64,000 nt of DNA from an uncultured archaeon (GTDB lineage: Archaea > Altiarchaeota > Altiarchaeia > IMC4 > QMZM01), in the NCBI GenBank assembly GCA_964549685.1, contig CAZJVE010000001.1:107906-171905 (forward strand), in the 5' to 3' direction. A program made the translations under genes and the position numbers. Shown here in pieces: positions 7,623 through 61,563 of this stretch. Each line of letters opens with the position of its first letter. Position 1 is the stretch's first letter. Below the pieces are notes generated by a model. The model had not been told where the DNA came from and searched no databases. It saw only the letters and a program-made list of their open reading frames with translations.

Positions 7623-8522
7623 ATGTACGATTTGGTTATAATAGGCGCGGGCCCGGCAGGAATCTCTGCTGGAATCTATGCAGTAAGGCGCAACCTGAAG
7701 ACGGTAATTCTGGAAAAGGCCTCTGTCGGGGGGCAGATGCTTTTAACAAATGACATAGAGAACTGGCCCGGCTTTGAGATGATTTCGGGTTCCGACTTGG
7801 CCAAGAGGATGGAGTCCCATGCAAAAAAGCTTGGGGTTGAGATTAAGACGGGGGAGGTTATAGGCATGTCCCTGGACGGGGATGTGAAGAAGCTGACCAC
7901 AAGGGATGGAGAATACGAAACCAAAGCCATCATAATCGCAAGCGGCGGGCAGCACAGAAAGCTTGGAATCAAGGGCGAGGATGAATTCGCCGGGAAGGGA
8001 GTGAGTTACTGTGCCACCTGCGATGCCCCGTTCTTCAAGGGCAAGGCCGTTGCCGTTGTGGGGGGAGGAAATATTGCCGCAGAGGATGCGCTCTATCTGA
8101 GCGAGATTGCATCGAAGGTCTATCTGATTCACAGGAAGGAATCCCTCAGGGCGGAGGAGGCCATTCAAAAGAGGCTGAAGGAGAAGGGGGTTGAGTTTAT
8201 TCTCAATGCAGAGGTTGAGGAGATTTCAGGGGAGACCTTTGTGAATAGCATCAAGCTGAAGGATGGGAAAAGCATCGAGGTGAATGGGATCTTCATATCC
8301 ATTGGGATTGTCCCCAGCACGACCATGGCAAAGGCAGCAGGAGTCGAGCTGGATAAGAAGGGCTATGTGAAGGTCAACAGGGAGCAGGAAACTAATGTCC
8401 AGGGAGTCTTTGCAGCGGGGGATGTTACAGGGGGAGTGATGCAGATTTCAACAGCAGTTGGAGAGGGGTGCATCGCTGCCCTCTCAGCCTATAGGTATGT
8501 GAAGAAGCCGTACTGGGGTTAG
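7623..8522 (+). CDS. trxB: Thioredoxin-disulfide reductase
   Basis: GAGPAG FAD motif, CATC redox-active disulfide, GGGN NADPH-binding motif. Confidence 0.88.
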   Translation: MYDLVIIGAGPAGISAGIYAVRRNLKTVILEKASVGGQMLLTNDIENWPGFEMISGSDLAKRMESHAKKLGVEIKTGEVIGMSLDGDVKKLTTRDGEYETKAIIIASGGQHRKLGIKGEDEFAGKGVSYCATCDAPFFKGKAVAVVGGGNIAAEDALYLSEIASKVYLIHRKESLRAEEAIQKRLKEKGVEFILNAEVEEISGETFVNSIKLKDGKSIEVNGIFISIGIVPSTTMAKAAGVELDKKGYVKVNREQETNVQGVFAAGDVTGGVMQISTAVGEGCIAALSAYRYVKKPYWG

Positions 8523-14358: not shown

Positions 14359-15568
14359 TTTTATCCAGTAGCAGATTCATGAATTCCGTTCCGTTTCTGA
14401 GGCCATAGGAGCCCTTCTCAGCGGATTTTTCAGTAAAGCTCTCTACCGAATCCCCTTCCCTGGCCGTTGAATAGATTGCAAAGGGAACAGGGTCGGGGGT
14501 ATGAGTCTTTACACTCAGGGGAGTTGCATGGTCGGGGAGAATCCCGATTGTGAATTCCTTGCCCTTCATGCCATCGAGAATTCTCGCAAGGACTCTGATG
14601 TCGATGTTCTCAATCGCCTCTATCTTGTTGTCCAGCAAACCCTCATGGCCGGCTTCGTCGGGGGCTTCGATATGGATGCATACGAAGTCGTTCCTCTCCA
14701 GTGCCTCCATGGCATAGTCTGCCTTGCCCTCGTAGTTTGTGTCGAGGTATGCGGTCGCTCCGGGAACCTCAATGACCTCCATTCCGAGGGTTGCTGCAAT
14801 TCCCTTCAGGAGGTCAACCCCAGATATCAGGGCGCCCTTGAGGTTGAACATTTCATTGAAGGAGGGGACCTTCTTGTTCCTGCCCGCACCCCAGGGCCAT
14901 ATCAGGTTGGCAGGCAGTTTGCCGCCTCCCTCTCTCTTTTTGTTTATGGGATGATTCTGGAGAATTTCCCTGGATTTTTCAATTAGGCCATCTAGAATCC
15001 TTGCTGTGTCTTCTCCCTCGGCGGTCTTTGCCTTTGGAAGATTCTCACTAACAGAACAGTCATGGATGTCGTGGGGGGGTTTGCAGATTATCTCCTCAGA
15101 GTATTTCCCGGAGAGAACGATAATGTGCCTGTAGCCTCTGCCAGGGTAGAATTTTATGTCTGTAGTGCCTAACTCTTTGTCCAGCTCTTCTATCAGAACA
15201 CTCGCTTCCTCGTCACTTATGTGTCCGGCGCTGTAGTCCTTAATCATACCGTCAGTCTCATTAATCAGATTGAGCCTTATCGCTATCTCGCTGTTCTTCA
15301 GTTTGATTCCAAGGCTTCTGGCTTCCAGGGGGCCTCTTCCGCCGGGATAATAAACCTTTGGGTCATAGCCAAGGACTGCGAGGTTTGCAACGTCGCTCCC
15401 GGCTTCGAATCCTTCGGGTATTGTCTTCAGGAGGCCGCAGCGCCCGTTCTTTGCGATAAAATCCATTGCCTTGGTTTCTGCCTTCTCCAGAGGGGTTTTT
15501 CCTCCGAGCTGTTCCAGGGGATAGTCAGACATGCCATCCCCGACTACAATCATATATTTCATATCCAA
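14351..15568 (-). CDS. apgM: 2,3-bisphosphoglycerate-independent phosphoglycerate mutase, archaeal type
   Basis: N-terminal MIVVGDGMSDYP and overall ApgM-family similarity. Confidence 0.85.
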   Translation of the reverse strand: MDMKYMIVVGDGMSDYPLEQLGGKTPLEKAETKAMDFIAKNGRCGLLKTIPEGFEAGSDVANLAVLGYDPKVYYPGGRGPLEARSLGIKLKNSEIAIRLNLINETDGMIKDYSAGHISDEEASVLIEELDKELGTTDIKFYPGRGYRHIIVLSGKYSEEIICKPPHDIHDCSVSENLPKAKTAEGEDTARILDGLIEKSREILQNHPINKKREGGGKLPANLIWPWGAGRNKKVPSFNEMFNLKGALISGVDLLKGIAATLGMEVIEVPGATAYLDTNYEGKADYAMEALERNDFVCIHIEAPDEAGHEGLLDNKIEAIENIDIRVLARILDGMKGKEFTIGILPDHATPLSVKTHTPDPVPFAIYSTAREGDSVESFTEKSAEKGSYGLRNGTEFMNLLLDKNG

Positions 15569-44314: not shown

Positions 44315-44697
44315 TTCAGGTTCTCAACAAGAGCAGGGGTTTTGTTATAAGCGAATCCTGTGGTGTAGCTGATTCTTTCTTCTCCAGGTTCAGGGGGCTG
44401 ATGCTTTCAAAGCCAAGGGACCTGGTTCTTGTTTCTCCGAGGGAGGACATAAAGTCCTCGGCGATTCACATGCTGTTTATGAGGTTTCCCATAGATGCTG
44501 TGTGGGTAGATTCAAAAATGATTGTTGTTGATATTAAAAAAAATATTAAACCTAATTCCCTAGGGATTTTCAGGCCGGGGAAGCCGGCTAAGTTTGTTGT
44601 GGAGCTGGGGGTGGGGAAGTTAGGCACTACAGAAGTTGGTGACATAATTGAGTTCTCACATCCCGGCCCCGCCGAGCCGCTTCATCAGCCGCTTTAG
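44308..44697 (+). CDS. DUF192 family protein; carries an in-frame copy of the recurrent 15-mer
   Basis: COG1430-like pattern; KLGTT is encoded by AAGTTAGGCACTACA at 44617..44631. Confidence 0.55.
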   Translation: MVIQVLNKSRGFVISESCGVADSFFSRFRGLMLSKPRDLVLVSPREDIKSSAIHMLFMRFPIDAVWVDSKMIVVDIKKNIKPNSLGIFRPGKPAKFVVELGVGKLGTTEVGDIIEFSHPGPAEPLHQPL

Positions 44698-53531: not shown

Positions 53532-53577
53532 GGGGGGACATTTCCGGTATTCTGGCGTGTCTTTGTTTTGGGTAGGA

Positions 53578-53680
53578 GTTAGGCACTACGTTCTGATTTC
53601 GGGGGCCCGAGTTAGGCACTACACTAAGGCATCAAAACTTAGGCACTACAAAACCAAAAGTAGAATAAGTTAGGCACTAC
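53578..53680 (+). repeat. Array of four direct copies of 12-mer GTTAGGCACTAC (15-mer consensus RAGTTAGGCACTACA), with 16-21 nt spacers, in a convergent intergenic region
   Basis: Exact copies at 53578, 53611, 53638 (first base C) and 53669; first unit followed by a GGGGG run. Confidence 0.85.
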
Positions 53681-53749
53681 ATAAAAATAGAATTGGTTGG
53701 GTGTCCTCTCAGATCAACGAATATTTAGACGCTGCGCGTTTCGGCTTAA

Positions 53750-54061
53750 CTATTCCTCGGCCGCTGCTTCCTCAGCACCGGCCACTACCAATTTACCGAA
53801 TTTCCCTGTGCTTACTTGGATTTCGCCGCGATACTCTTTCGCCCATCCATTCTCTATAACTATCTTGTCGTTTGCCTTTACTTGGTCCGCCTGTTCGTTC
53901 CAGAGGGTTAGGTTTATCTCGCCGGTTTCGTCCTTCGCCTTGGCGTTTGCCACTCGACCGGTGCCTCTAAAATTGGTAAACTCCCGTGGTTCCTCAACCT
54001 CAACTACCTCCACCTCAAGCACGTCAACGGGCTTGTTTGGCTGAACATCCTTTATCTGCAT
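53750..54061 (-). CDS. OB-fold nucleic-acid-binding protein (short RPA/SSB-like)
   Basis: Single OB-fold pattern and acidic C-terminal tail (AEEAAAEE). Confidence 0.55.
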   Translation of the reverse strand: MQIKDVQPNKPVDVLEVEVVEVEEPREFTNFRGTGRVANAKAKDETGEINLTLWNEQADQVKANDKIVIENGWAKEYRGEIQVSTGKFGKLVVAGAEEAAAEE

Positions 54062-54129
54062 TTTATATACCTCATGAAATAATAGATTTATGATTTAGAT
54101 GAGGAACTATATAAATGAGCCATTGGTTA

Positions 54130-54939
54130 CTATACTCCTATTTTAATCCTATTATTAATCTCTTTTAGAATAGCGATAGTAGATAGTGCTGCGAGATAGC
54201 TTGTTTTTGGGTTGTTAGGAGAGGGTAGGTTTTCCATCCTGACTTTGAATTCCCCAAACTCTCCTTTAACACGAATTTCATGAATGTTCCTCTCCACACC
54301 CGGGTCCGCTATTATTCTTAGTTTCGTTTTATCAAACCCTATGCCTGCCAAAGAGAGGGTGGCAGCAACATTAACGTTTTTTGGGAATTTTTTGATTCCC
54401 TCTCTTGCAGAACCATCATAGAGCACGGTTTCTTTGTCGGTTGTAGTGCCTAACTCTGCCGGGGGCTTCCGCGTTGTCAATTCAACCGAGTCGATTCCCT
54501 TGGCTTTGGCTGCCTTTATCCCATCCAAACCAGCAACCGCCCCGGAGGGAAGATAGACCGTGCTTTTGTTTTTATTGCTGCTCTCCACCAGCCCGTTAAA
54601 CACCGTTTCATCAGCAAGGGCACCGACACTCATTATAATCAAGCCCCGGCCGGAATTCAGAACCCCCACCCCATATTCCTTCACCGCGTCCTGCGACGCC
54701 GCCTCAACTATCAAATCAGTGCCCTGGAGCAGGCCCTCGAAGGAGCCTGCAACGCTTGGTTTCCTACTCAACGACTCTGCTAATCCTCTGGCTCGCTCGG
54801 CGTCCTGGTCAAAGACGGCAACCAGGCTGCAATTAACCTCTCCGTTATCAATTGCCTCGGCCAGAATTCTGCCGATGTTCCCGCAACCAAGGAGGCCGAT
54901 TCTCATCTTCTTCCCTTCCCTACTTATCTCCTTATCCAT
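54130..54939 (-). CDS. nadX: L-aspartate dehydrogenase
   Basis: Rossmann start MRIGLLGCGNIG and the NadX-family C-terminal domain. Confidence 0.75.
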   Translation of the reverse strand: MDKEISREGKKMRIGLLGCGNIGRILAEAIDNGEVNCSLVAVFDQDAERARGLAESLSRKPSVAGSFEGLLQGTDLIVEAASQDAVKEYGVGVLNSGRGLIIMSVGALADETVFNGLVESSNKNKSTVYLPSGAVAGLDGIKAAKAKGIDSVELTTRKPPAELGTTTDKETVLYDGSAREGIKKFPKNVNVAATLSLAGIGFDKTKLRIIADPGVERNIHEIRVKGEFGEFKVRMENLPSPNNPKTSYLAALSTIAILKEINNRIKIGV

Positions 54940-55739
54940 AACTGCACCCTGATTAGAATATACAAGAGGAAAAAGATAAAAGAGAGCACCAGGACGCGTA
55001 GTTTTGACACCGGCCGCGCCTGAGTCAAACCACCGGCATCAAAAAACTTCCCCCGTTCAATATCCTCGACATACTTGAGAATTCCCCTCTTATGTCCTGC
55101 ACCAACAATGGCCAGGATTTTCTTATCCGGGTTATTTGCCTGGAGCTGGTGGAGCGACAGGGCCATGTACCTGTCTCTTTCATCAACCAGAGCACCGTAA
55201 AGGCGGGGCAGCCGGCGTCTGACAACACCCATAACCTTTTCAATATTCTCCTCCTCAAGGATGCTGCTCAAATCGTTCCCGAACAGGTCCCCAAAGACCA
55301 ACGCCTCCTCCTTACCGAGACGCGCCATCCTTAGAATCTCCCTGAACGGAATATTGACAAGCCTGCTGACGGTAACCTCAATATCCCTGTCAATCAGCGC
55401 TGTTCCTGCACCGATTTCATTGGAGAACTGAATAGCAGCGAACATATCTGAGCCCGGCGGAAGCCCATACCTCTTTCCAATATCCTGCTGAATCAAAGCG
55501 AGAATTCCACCCAGGAATACAAGAAACGACCCCCCTCTCACCACATCGGCTATTATGCTGCCCGCGCTTTTCTGTGCCCCGCCCTGGTAGAAACCAGCAC
55601 CTTGCGATTCTATTACCCGGAATCTCTTTTCACACAGCTCAAGAGCAACGATGTCCGGTCTCTCATCAAAGACGGCCTCCCTGACGCCCTCAACACTCCT
55701 CTCCAGAATGTGCCCCGTCCCGACGATTTTTATATTCAT
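54924..55739 (-). CDS. TraB/GumN family protein
   Basis: Conserved start MNIKIVGTGHILERS; family-typical length. Confidence 0.6.
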   Translation of the reverse strand: MNIKIVGTGHILERSVEGVREAVFDERPDIVALELCEKRFRVIESQGAGFYQGGAQKSAGSIIADVVRGGSFLVFLGGILALIQQDIGKRYGLPPGSDMFAAIQFSNEIGAGTALIDRDIEVTVSRLVNIPFREILRMARLGKEEALVFGDLFGNDLSSILEEENIEKVMGVVRRRLPRLYGALVDERDRYMALSLHQLQANNPDKKILAIVGAGHKRGILKYVEDIERGKFFDAGGLTQARPVSKLRVLVLSFIFFLLYILIRVQLWIRR

Positions 55740-57504: not shown

Positions 57505-57813
57505 ATGTTCCGTCTTGTGTACATAACCTGCGGCGGCAATGAGGAAGCGGAAAGGATTTCCGACGCTCTCGTTAAGGAGAAGCTTGCAGCATGCGTGAAT
57601 TTCTTCCCAATAAACTCCGTATTTGAATGGGAAGGGGAAATAAAACAGGAAAAGGAGTTCGCCATGCTCTGCAAAACGACGCAGGACAAAATCCCCCAAC
57701 TAAAGAAAAGGGTGAAGGAGATTCACAGCTATGAGATTCCCGCAATCCTCATTATAGAAATAAAAGAGGGAAACGAGGAATTCCTTAGGTGGGTTGATAA
57801 GTGCCTGGAATAG
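57505..57813 (+). CDS. cutA: Divalent-cation tolerance protein CutA
   Basis: CutA1 family: LAACVNF, WKGEI-like region, 100 aa. Confidence 0.75.
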   Translation: MFRLVYITCGGNEEAERISDALVKEKLAACVNFFPINSVFEWEGEIKQEKEFAMLCKTTQDKIPQLKKRVKEIHSYEIPAILIIEIKEGNEEFLRWVDKCLE

Positions 57814-57816
57814 TTT

Positions 57817-57906
57817 GTAGTGCCTAACTCTGCAGTGGTGTGGTGCTTAACCTTTGGTGCTGTTTTGTAGTGCCTAACTTTATTATGCCGTGTTGTAGTG
57901 CCTAAC
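57817..57906 (-). repeat. Array of three exact and one degenerate copy of the same 12-mer in reverse orientation (GTAGTGCCTAAC), in a convergent intergenic region
   Basis: Exact copies at 57817, 57867 and 57895; degenerate GTGGTGCTTAAC at 57840. Confidence 0.85.
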
Positions 57907-57928: not shown

Positions 57929-58507
57929 CTACTCTCTGAGAACCTTCCCGGACCGCAAATCAATAACCTTCGACGGCTTCCCCACCCTGCACGGCCCGGA
58001 GTCGATAACGAGATCTGCTCCATCCTTTATCCTATCAGAAATCTCCTCGACGCTGGTGGGGGGCGCCTCACCAGAGGCATTCGCTGAGGTGGTTATTATT
58101 GGAACCCCCGCGGCATCGACGACTCTCCTCAATGCTGCGTGGTTGGGAATCCTCACCCCAACCGTGTCCTTACCAGCAGTAACGGCATCGGGAATTCTAG
58201 ATTTTTTCTTTAAAATGAACGTGTATGGTTTACCAATATTATCAAGTATGAATTTTCTCTCCCCCACACCGACAACTGCGTACTCCTCAACCATCTCGAT
58301 GCTGGAGAAGGCAACGGACAGCGGCATGTCTCTACTCCTCTTCTTAATCTCAAAAACCCTCTCTACGCCGGGGGATTCTATGGAGCAACCGAGTCCATAG
58401 ACGGTATCTGTCGGATATACAATAAGCTTACCCGCCCTCAAAAACTCCGCAGCGCATAGAATCTTATCCTCTTCAGGGTTATCTGGAGAAATTCTTAGAA
58501 TCTTCAT
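57929..58507 (-). CDS. YrdC/Sua5-family L-threonylcarbamoyladenylate synthase
   Basis: YrdC domain motifs (VYPTDTVYGL, SANASGE). Confidence 0.8.
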   Translation of the reverse strand: MKILRISPDNPEEDKILCAAEFLRAGKLIVYPTDTVYGLGCSIESPGVERVFEIKKRSRDMPLSVAFSSIEMVEEYAVVGVGERKFILDNIGKPYTFILKKKSRIPDAVTAGKDTVGVRIPNHAALRRVVDAAGVPIITTSANASGEAPPTSVEEISDRIKDGADLVIDSGPCRVGKPSKVIDLRSGKVLRE

Positions 58508-60243: not shown

Positions 60244-61476
60244 ATGTTTATCGGTTTGGATGATACGGACTCCCTGAAGGGGGGATGCACCACTTACCTA
60301 GCAGCGCTGCTGTGTAGGGAGCTAGGCACTACAACACGCCCCCGACTCATCCGGCTCAACCCGAACATCCCCTACAAGACAAGAGGCAACGGCGCAGTCG
60401 CAATTGAGGTGGATGGAAACCCTGCTAGAATAAAGGAAACGGCCCTGAAACTGGTCAAGAAACGCGCCCACACCCAGGACAAGAGAACAAACCCCGGTGT
60501 GGCATTCATTGATAATCTAAATTCAAAAAATAAAGACATTTTAAATGAATTCTACCAGAGAGCGGTCTCAGAACTCGTAACGATAGAGGAAGCCGATGAA
60601 ACCGCAGCAAGGGCTGTGGCCGAAACCCACAAATTCAACAACGGCAGGGGCATCATCGGCGCACTGGCAGCAATCGGTGCAGAACTTGATGACAGGACCT
60701 ATGAGCTAATTGCCTACAGGACGAAGGAGAACTGCGGCAAGCCGAAGAAGATAGACGAGGATTCCGTATTCTTGATGCATGAACAATTCCACCCCAAGGT
60801 ATTCAACTCCATTGACCCAGAGACGAATCAAATCCTTATAACCCCACACGGCTACGACCCGGTCTTCTGTGGCATCCGGGGAGAATCTCCCGGCGCAGTT
60901 TTGAAAGCATGGAAGGCCATAAAACCCCTGGAAGAGATAGAACTCACCCAAATATTTGAGACAAACCAAGCTACAGATGCTCATTTGAGAAATAGAAAAA
61001 TCTCTGAATTAAAGCCCCATGACTGCGCAATTCTGGAAGGCGCCGTTGCCAAAGACCCAAGAACAATCGAGGGCGGCCACGTGCTCTTCTCAATTGCTGA
61101 CAGCACGGCAGAGATTGATTGCGCGGCCTACGAGCCAACAGGAGGATTCAGAGAAATAGCAAGGAAACTGCTGCCCGGGGACAGGATTCGTGCCTACGGC
61201 GGGATTGGAAAATATATTAATACTCTAAACCTTGAGAAAATTGAAATTTTAGAATTGGTTAAGGCCTACAAGAAGGAATCTCCTGCCTGTTGCGGCCGGA
61301 GGATGACCTCAGCAGGAAAAGACAAGGGCTTCAAGTGCAGGAAGTGCGGCAAGAGAAAGGACTCGAACTCTGCAGCAACCCAGGAAATTCCCCGGGGACT
61401 TAAAGAAGGATTCTACGAGGCACCACCCAGGGCGATGAGGCACCTGAGCAAGCCGATAATAAGGGCGCAGCAGTGA
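60244..61476 (+). CDS. tiaS: tRNA(Ile2) 2-agmatinylcytidine synthetase
   Basis: MFIGLDDTDS N-terminus and C-terminal Zn ribbon (CRKCGKRK); carries an in-frame 15-mer copy (ELGTT). Confidence 0.8.
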   Translation: MFIGLDDTDSLKGGCTTYLAALLCRELGTTTRPRLIRLNPNIPYKTRGNGAVAIEVDGNPARIKETALKLVKKRAHTQDKRTNPGVAFIDNLNSKNKDILNEFYQRAVSELVTIEEADETAARAVAETHKFNNGRGIIGALAAIGAELDDRTYELIAYRTKENCGKPKKIDEDSVFLMHEQFHPKVFNSIDPETNQILITPHGYDPVFCGIRGESPGAVLKAWKAIKPLEEIELTQIFETNQATDAHLRNRKISELKPHDCAILEGAVAKDPRTIEGGHVLFSIADSTAEIDCAAYEPTGGFREIARKLLPGDRIRAYGGIGKYINTLNLEKIEILELVKAYKKESPACCGRRMTSAGKDKGFKCRKCGKRKDSNSAATQEIPRGLKEGFYEAPPRAMRHLSKPIIRAQQ

Positions 61477-61563
61477 ATTTCAACAGACAAAACCGATATG
61501 TAGTGCCTAACTTTTCTCCAACCTATTTAATCCTCCACTCCTAATTCTATTACACTCCCAGAG

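Follow-up and report, generated by a model that had tools for sequence, protein, structure and literature searches.

A 12-nt word, GTAGTGCCTAAC, occurs in arrays and as single copies in a 64,000-nt stretch of DNA from an uncultured archaeon of the Altiarchaeota (the window). The word is shared lineage-wide by Altiarchaeota and by genomes labelled as DPANN, and it arises at the DNA level and not at the protein level. The arrays are read here as docking sites for a putative sequence-specific DNA-binding factor, sites that would mark a chromosomal neighbourhood, and we give this reading a probability of about 0.4. How the word is distributed, how exact it is, how its arrays turn over, its DNA-level origin, its regional clustering and the skew switch at the cluster are direct results; from these we infer that the reader of the word is a DNA-binding protein with a role at the level of the chromosome. 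A literature search found neither the 12-mer nor a relevant description, and the word appears to be undescribed.

With up to two mismatches allowed, GTAGTGCCTAAC has 13 matches in the window compared with 2.10 expected, and none of 100 shuffled sequences reaches 13. No 10- to 12-mers of the window are more over-represented than the word and the sub-words that overlap it. Alignment of all copies shows that the conserved unit is T-GTAGTGCCTAAC-T, which is followed by a pyrimidine-rich tail. The palindrome GAATTC is also abundant in the window, with 97 occurrences compared with 31.6 expected (0 of 100 shuffles reach 97), and 8-mers that contain it head the k-mer list.

The right array is on the + strand and occupies the 115-bp gap between cutA (positions 57505–57813, + strand, PF03091) and a YrdC/Sua5 gene (positions 57929–58507, - strand, PF01300); the two genes are convergent. 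Copy 1 (57817–57828) is 3 nt past the cutA stop codon and copy 4 (57895–57906) is 22 nt from the stop codon of the opposite-strand yrdC gene. These two copies and copy 3 (57867–57878) are exact. Copy 2 (57840–57851) is the degenerate sequence GTGGTGCTTAAC with two mismatches; its aligned counterpart in the congener L326 is exact. Successive copies are spaced by 23, 27 and 28 bp. The array is as the initial annotation had described it, i.e., three exact copies (57817, 57867 and 57895) and one degenerate copy (57840) in a convergent gap.

The left array is on the - strand at positions 53578–53680 and also has four copies, which are exact at 53578, 53611 and 53669 and have one mismatch at 53638. 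It lies 47 nt past the stop codon of a Lon-like AAA ATPase gene, between the 3' ends of this gene and an OB-fold (SSB-like) gene. The position of the ATPase-side array is kept in five Altiarchaeales genomes, down to about 62% protein identity. The two arrays are thus mutually inverted, with the left copies on the - strand and the right copies on the + strand, and the genes between them (OB-fold, nadX, TraB-family, PRC-barrel, pyrE, nadC and cutA) are those that had been named previously. A 115-aa ORF on the + strand (53697–54044) overlaps the true OB-fold gene on the - strand (53750–54061) and exceeds it in length; naive longest-ORF calling picks the wrong strand here.

A separate 20-nt element, GGGGGGACATTTCCGGTATT, is found directly past the ATPase stop codon (53532–53551, + strand) and is kept in five genomes. 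An inverted copy with two mismatches is inside the traB coding sequence (55516–55535, - strand), where it encodes GGSFLVF. The element, as GGGGGGWCAYTTCCNRTATT, is also present at position 3375 in L055, 11465 in L326, 11486 and 14882 in L329, and 11485 and 14558 in L331. Its substitutions look codon-like (GG[ST][FL]P[VI]F); its frame relative to the ATPase stop codon varies between genomes, and it has no start codon.

The word had been placed in the two arrays. Both arrays are present, but the word is not confined to them, as there are five more copies in the window. Three are single exact copies inside genes: in a phosphoglycerate mutase gene (15162–15173, + strand, ELGTT), in a DUF192 gene (44619–44630, - strand, KLGTT; kept in L326, absent in L329), and in nadX, hence within the block enclosed by the arrays (54443–54454, + strand, antisense, ELGTT; kept in L326). 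A decaying copy in tiaS (60321–60332, - strand, ELGTT) has one mismatch, and two in L326. The fifth is an exact single copy in the gap between tiaS and nrdD (61500–61511, + strand) and is kept in L326. The order of orientations along the window is +, -, ----, +, ++++, -, +. The density is uneven, with one copy in the first 44 kb versus about 12 toward the end of the window (53.5–61.5 kb).

The copies inside genes occupy all three stop-free reading frames in unrelated proteins, and encode (E/K)LGTT (14 copies), VRHY (12) and VVPN (10). The word encodes all four LGTT peptides of the window; three come from exact copies and the fourth from the tiaS copy with its one mismatch (CTA for Leu). The exact LGTT-encoding copies use the rare codon TTA, which represents 6% of the Leu codons. 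The copy in nadX covers an invariant Leu-Gly and the two variable residues after it, and there is no indel; it was therefore made by substitution. An antisense bias among coding copies was considered as a sign of function and rejected, as the ratio of 29:10 is that predicted by stop codons in the frames of the word (about 2:1).

A structured RNA is ruled out by fold z-scores close to 0 (0.06 and 0.53 for the two arrays) and by the lack of an Rfam match to the arrays. A ribosome-binding or promoter element was also rejected. Copies in a viral contig (described below) first seemed to be 0–8 nt upstream of ATG codons, but when frames are drawn from stop to stop nearly all of these copies are inside long ORFs. 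A TATA box at a fixed distance was not found, host genes carry ordinary TATA or GAGGTGA signals, and only 3 of 88 host copies adjoin a start codon.

Comparison with related genomes shows both conservation and turnover. In L326 (GCA_018895455), where the ATPase is 89% identical, the gene order is the same and the word is at the same places. The number of units differs: the left array has four copies in the window and three in L326, and the right array has three exact copies and one degenerate copy in the window compared with five exact and one degenerate in L326. The core is exact in both, while the spacers differ in sequence and the arrays have gained or lost units. In the more distant L329, L331 and L055 (about 62% protein identity), the ATPase-side array is present in unchanged orientation. 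Its inverted partner is found between the OB-fold gene and nadX, and yrdC is without an array. A two-gene segment, serB-OB, is inverted exactly between the inverted arrays when L055 (3438–5393) is compared with L329 (11612–13495) and L331 (11532–13174), and the arrays that bracket it keep their orientation. Word positions are common to congeners and are turned over at family distance, and the loci of relatives carry 0–11 copies per 20 kb. An IS605-type tnpB gene has the word (KLGTT) at the same internal position in two Altiarchaeota genomes (L326, 6923–8113; L111, 1569–2756). In L111, a two-copy word array is located 80–115 nt upstream of tnpB.

The distribution of the word among lineages was determined by a scan of one genome per species (596 Gb) for the 14-mer TGTAGTGCCTAACT, which gave at least 120 matches. 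Among the matches listed, about 54 are from Altiarchaeota, from Micrarchaeota- or Iainarchaeota-labelled MAGs or from unclassified archaeal MAGs; the remaining ones are single bacterial hits, at the level of chance for a 14-mer in 596 Gb. The archaeal loci have 88 exact copies compared with about 10 one-mismatch variants, and certain 'dialect' variants such as GTAGTACCTAAC are recurrent. Arrays are present in other archaea, with five exact copies and one degenerate copy in L104 and three copies each in L053 and L028. The flanks and neighbouring genes of the copies are unrelated across lineages, which rules out a tie to a particular neighbouring gene. As a negative control, loci of distant NadC homologues (no more than 50% identity) were taken from a metagenome scan, and 694 kb around the nadC homologues of these other archaea contained no exact copy. 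The word is also absent from 20 kb of an Altiarchaeales IMC4 genome (L338) and from 15 kb of a Woesearchaeote (L339).

The array in L104, a Micrarchaeota-labelled MAG, is at positions 147–430 and has a period of 45–66 bp and spacers that are partly similar. It is upstream of an archaeosortase/exosortase-like gene, and a crude ORF caller had merged it into an ORF. Locus L028 (JABHLR010000003.1, an unclassified archaeon) has an extreme third-position skew, with GC3 of +0.75 and AT3 of -0.67 on both gene strands. The skew in L091 is also strong (+0.29 and -0.58).

The word is also carried by a tailed virus. The 45-kb IMG/VR contig IMGVR_UViG_3300009320_000030 (loci L307, L221 and L253) encodes a portal protein, a terminase and a major capsid protein. 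In the approximately 25 kb examined there are 17 exact copies of the word, all on one strand, and the density is several-fold above that of the host. Nearly all are inside long ORFs and they are always in the frame that encodes (K/E/R)LGTT; two tandem pairs have copies 15 bp apart (LGTTELGTT). All genes of the virus are on one strand and the coding copies of Altiarchaeales likewise favour LGTT, so the uniform orientation may follow from peptide tolerance. A protein shared by virus and host was sought as a candidate reader, but a BLAST comparison of virus ORFs with host ORFs gave only a PP-loop fragment.

In the window, five of the seven word events are located within 53.5–61.5 kb (p about 5e-4 for a fixed 8-kb bin). 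The same neighbourhood, which includes the genes for DnaG, the ATPase, the OB-fold protein and nadX, is a hot spot in L326, L329 and L331. The third-codon-position AT and GC skews switch at positions 54000–54900 with the same sign for both gene strands. AT3, read on the + strand, has a mean of -0.13 over the 49 genes on the left side and +0.25 over the 9 genes on the right side (Mann-Whitney p = 6e-6), and GC3 is +0.12 to the left compared with -0.02 to the right (p = 0.014). Since genes on either strand have the same sign, the skew is associated with replication. The skew of L326 switches at the same place (about position 12000 of L326).

The leading strand is usually rich in G and T, a property established for bacteria and assumed here for archaea. 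Under this assumption forks would converge at about 54 kb, and the polarity of the switch at about 54–55 kb probably reflects a replication terminus; it would reflect an origin if the polarity in this clade is reversed. Read as GTTAGGCACTAC, five of the seven word events of the window point toward about 54.2 kb. A Pfam scan of the window ORFs, apart from those at 44.6–49.2 kb, which were named only by synteny with L326, and a 299-aa ORF (7623–8522), gave no orc1/cdc6 gene. A search near the switch for a dif-like site gave no convincing inverted repeat. L329 has arrays at the same genes but no skew switch there, and therefore the link to a terminus may be lineage-specific or coincidental. A comparison of word orientation with local skew at other loci gives about 10 events that agree and about 10 that disagree. 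A replication-polar word of the KOPS or Chi type was rejected, as it fits the five of seven window events but fails across other loci and in L329.

Several other explanations of the arrays can be compared with the docking-site reading. The direct repeats inside each array (four - strand copies near 53.6 kb and four + strand copies near 57.8 kb) and the inversion between arrays are what might be expected if the arrays were the termini of a mobile unit spanning 53.7–57.8 kb, such as a Tn7- or Mu-type transposon. The likeness is superficial. The 7–8 enclosed housekeeping genes include no transposase or integrase, and the outer flanks, which end in GGTAGGA on the left and begin with TTTCTAG on the right, have no direct repeat that would represent a target-site duplication. 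The word is present within and outside the block as well as at its ends, and it enters coding sequence by substitution. In addition, the 53.7–57.8 kb block is syntenic and is never missing or shifted as a unit in relatives, where the arrays pair differently. A mobile origin is thus hardly credible, and the initial annotation had also held it to be unsupported. However, its view of the arrays as a pair that brackets a 4.1-kb block has to be abandoned. The word is inside the block, elsewhere in the window and in dozens of genomes; the ATPase-side array has a different inverted partner in L329, L331 and L055, where the cutA/yrdC gap is without an array; and arrays occur independently of each other, with single copies at unrelated loci. 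Its comparison of the repeats with protein-binding units was right as to appearance, and its proposal of paired platforms or a domain boundary survives in a weaker form, i.e., as clusters of a genome-wide word at a replication skew switch, and not as a pair.

A role of inverted arrays as recombination sites would make them crossover points for segment inversion, in the manner of a shufflon, and the bracketed genes would be invertible. The serB-OB segment that flipped between arrays of fixed orientation (L055 compared with L329 and L331) is in keeping with this, as is the third-position AT skew of this segment in L329, which is opposite to that of its surroundings. The site itself is of the wrong type: it is 12 bp, asymmetric and in direct arrays with variable spacing, unlike the sites of tyrosine or serine recombinases. 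A recombinase gene was not found near the arrays, copies within essential genes would be hazardous, and L326, L329 and L331 all have the 4.1-kb block oriented as in the window. Recombination is thus a very improbable function of the arrays. The word could instead serve in uptake or self-recognition, similar to DUS/USS and loosely to Chi, if an import or surveillance machine prefers DNA that bears it. Biased transmission or selection would then sprinkle the word where it is tolerated, arrays would be tandem amplifications in neutral gaps, and the virus would mimic its host. Much of the distribution is compatible with such a word: it is exact, with few one-mismatch variants (in the archaeal loci, 88 exact copies compared with about 10), is created in situ by substitution, uses all open frames, follows no orientation rule across lineages and is enriched in intergenic DNA. 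Its T/C-rich 3' tail resembles the USS flank, congeners share positions that turn over at family distance, dialect variants recur, the word is patchy among lineages and absent in IMC4, and the virus is heavily loaded with copies. On the other hand, the density is low and very uneven along the window, arrays of direct copies are atypical of DUS/USS, and array positions are kept at about 62% protein identity. Neither natural competence nor a receptor is known in these archaea, and DUS dialects drift, whereas here all 12 letters are the same across phylum-level labels. On balance an uptake word is somewhat unlikely. A signal at the transcript level, read as GUUAGGCACUAC, has been considered as well; located just past stop codons, it would act in 3'-end formation, termination or mRNA stability, and in-gene copies would be masked during translation. 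Where genes have been called properly, all 6 coding copies and 6 of the 7 co-directional gaps have GUUAGGCACUAC in the sense direction, and in Altiarchaeales loci with good annotation the GTTAGGCACTAC strand is mostly the sense strand of the adjacent upstream gene (22 versus 9 intergenic events, p = 0.03). This bias is suggestive of a reading that is linked to transcription or made at the RNA level. Past the ATPase gene and past nadX, the arrays also stay oriented though the intervening genes flip (L055 compared with L329 and L331), copies often begin 0–50 nt past a stop codon, and 17 of 17 viral copies are in the sense orientation. However, coding copies from all lineages follow the 2:1 expectation from open frames (26:10), there are VVPN coding copies, and a copy in the opposite orientation is conserved (61500 and its L326 counterpart). 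The Micrarchaeota array in L104 is upstream of a gene, neither RNA structure nor a consistent T-run is seen, and 17 terminators within viral genes make little sense. A transcript signal is therefore quite unlikely.

Under the docking-site reading, the functional unit would be the single word T-GTAGTGCCTAAC-T and not the pair of arrays, and it may represent a lineage-specific recognition word. A conserved trans-acting factor, presumably a DNA-binding protein with one asymmetric site per protomer, would read it. Selection would hold the 12 letters exact while the surroundings drift. In free non-coding gaps, units of the word and a spacer of about 15 bp could be duplicated or lost, which would give arrays of 2–6 direct copies that may serve as high-occupancy multi-site platforms. 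Where no free DNA is available, the word would be written into genes by substitution in any stop-free frame. In the window and in relatives the copies are concentrated in a single neighbourhood, from DnaG, the Lon-like ATPase, the OB-fold/SSB-like gene and nadX to nrdD, which here lies on the skew switch. Because of this clustering on the switch, the arrays are read as possible landmarks of chromosome maintenance, with putative roles in replication termination, in segregation or organisation, or in the marking of self DNA. They would be neither operators of the flanking genes (cutA, yrdC) nor transposon ends. A purely regional landmark leaves the single in-gene copies far from the cluster unexplained. 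A search for the reader protein found none. The OB-fold/SSB-like protein, whose gene adjoins an array in five genomes, was rejected as the specific reader, as its family is also present in the word-free L338 (IMC4) and L339 (Woesearchaeote).

A more specific form of this proposal is tentative. The word could be a first archaeal 'identity word', an exact 12–14-bp sequence. Its reader would be a conserved machine that Altiarchaeales share with some DPANN and that marks either the terminus or segregation region or self DNA, e.g., for uptake or protection from nucleases. If so, it is important enough that the tailed virus of the clade has rewritten 17 in-gene sites in order to carry it. The word is letter-perfect across uncultivated Altiarchaeales and DPANN-labelled genomes, and its presence in genes restricts the choice of amino acids. 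It provides a concrete handle on its reader protein and on the chromosome biology of organisms that cannot be cultivated. In bacteria, the DUS/USS, Chi, KOPS, parS and Ter words opened the study of DNA uptake, recombination, segregation and termination. To our knowledge, no genome-wide recognition words have been established in archaea beyond the ORB boxes of origins and dif. There is also a caution for annotation, in that inverted repeat arrays that flank housekeeping genes in such genomes are not mobile-element ends.

Comparison with known systems separates the arrays from several classes of repeat. CRISPR loci have repeats of 23–50 bp, uniform spacers and cas genes with a leader, whereas these arrays have a 12-bp core, spacers of 11–21 bp and no cas genes; TRF found no regular array. 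REP and BIME elements differ in that the arrays have no stable hairpin or conserved secondary structure. In the ORB clusters of archaeal origins, inverted Orc1 repeats surround a short AT-rich element beside orc1/cdc6. Here the arrays are 4.1 kb apart with 7–8 genes between them, the word is also dispersed in genes, and the skew polarity fits converging forks.

The Chi and KOPS words are similar in being over-represented in genes and gaps, and the single orientation used by the virus is also comparable. They are 5–8-mers with replichore-wide orientation skew and even spacing, whereas the orientation of this word flips within a few kb and its copies are clustered. The Ter sites of E. coli (Tus) and B. 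subtilis (RTP) are asymmetric, of similar length and in some cases within genes. In addition, the window copies form two opposed groups about the skew switch (five of seven toward about 54.2 kb), and L326 fits this pattern too. Unlike Ter, there are many more copies, which are in arrays; L329 has arrays without a skew switch; and the orientation does not follow the skew elsewhere. We know of no Tus or RTP homologue in archaea. As in parS/ParB and the iteron centromeres (parC/ParR, tubC/TubR), there is an exact and deeply conserved site that is clustered in one neighbourhood, with some copies in genes. The arrays share with iteron centromeres their construction from direct repeats, and the scattered copies in the virus are similar to the sopC sites that are dispersed in phage N15. 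Unlike parS, the 12-mer is asymmetric and not palindromic; its copies are 15–73 bp apart and not contiguous as iterons are, and a gene for ParB, ParR, SegB or an RHH protein was not found beside the arrays. The word cluster also differs from centromere clusters in being at a skew switch with terminus-like rather than origin-like polarity.

DUS (a 12-mer in Neisseria) and USS (a 9-mer core with a T-rich flank in Haemophilus) differ from the word in density and arrangement. They are roughly even at about 1 per kb, whereas the word has a much lower density and is strongly clustered. The word forms direct arrays of 2–6 copies instead of inverted terminator pairs, and its 12 letters are identical across phylum-level labels. 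We know of no DUS/USS-type word described in archaea. Like DUS/USS, the word is short, exact, asymmetric and hugely over-represented. It is present in either orientation, both between genes and, in any frame that can be tolerated, within them, and it is created by substitution. It is also common to related species and is carried by their phages. In behaviour the word is closest to the bacterial recognition words DUS/USS, parS, Ter and Chi, although it lacks at least one defining feature of each.
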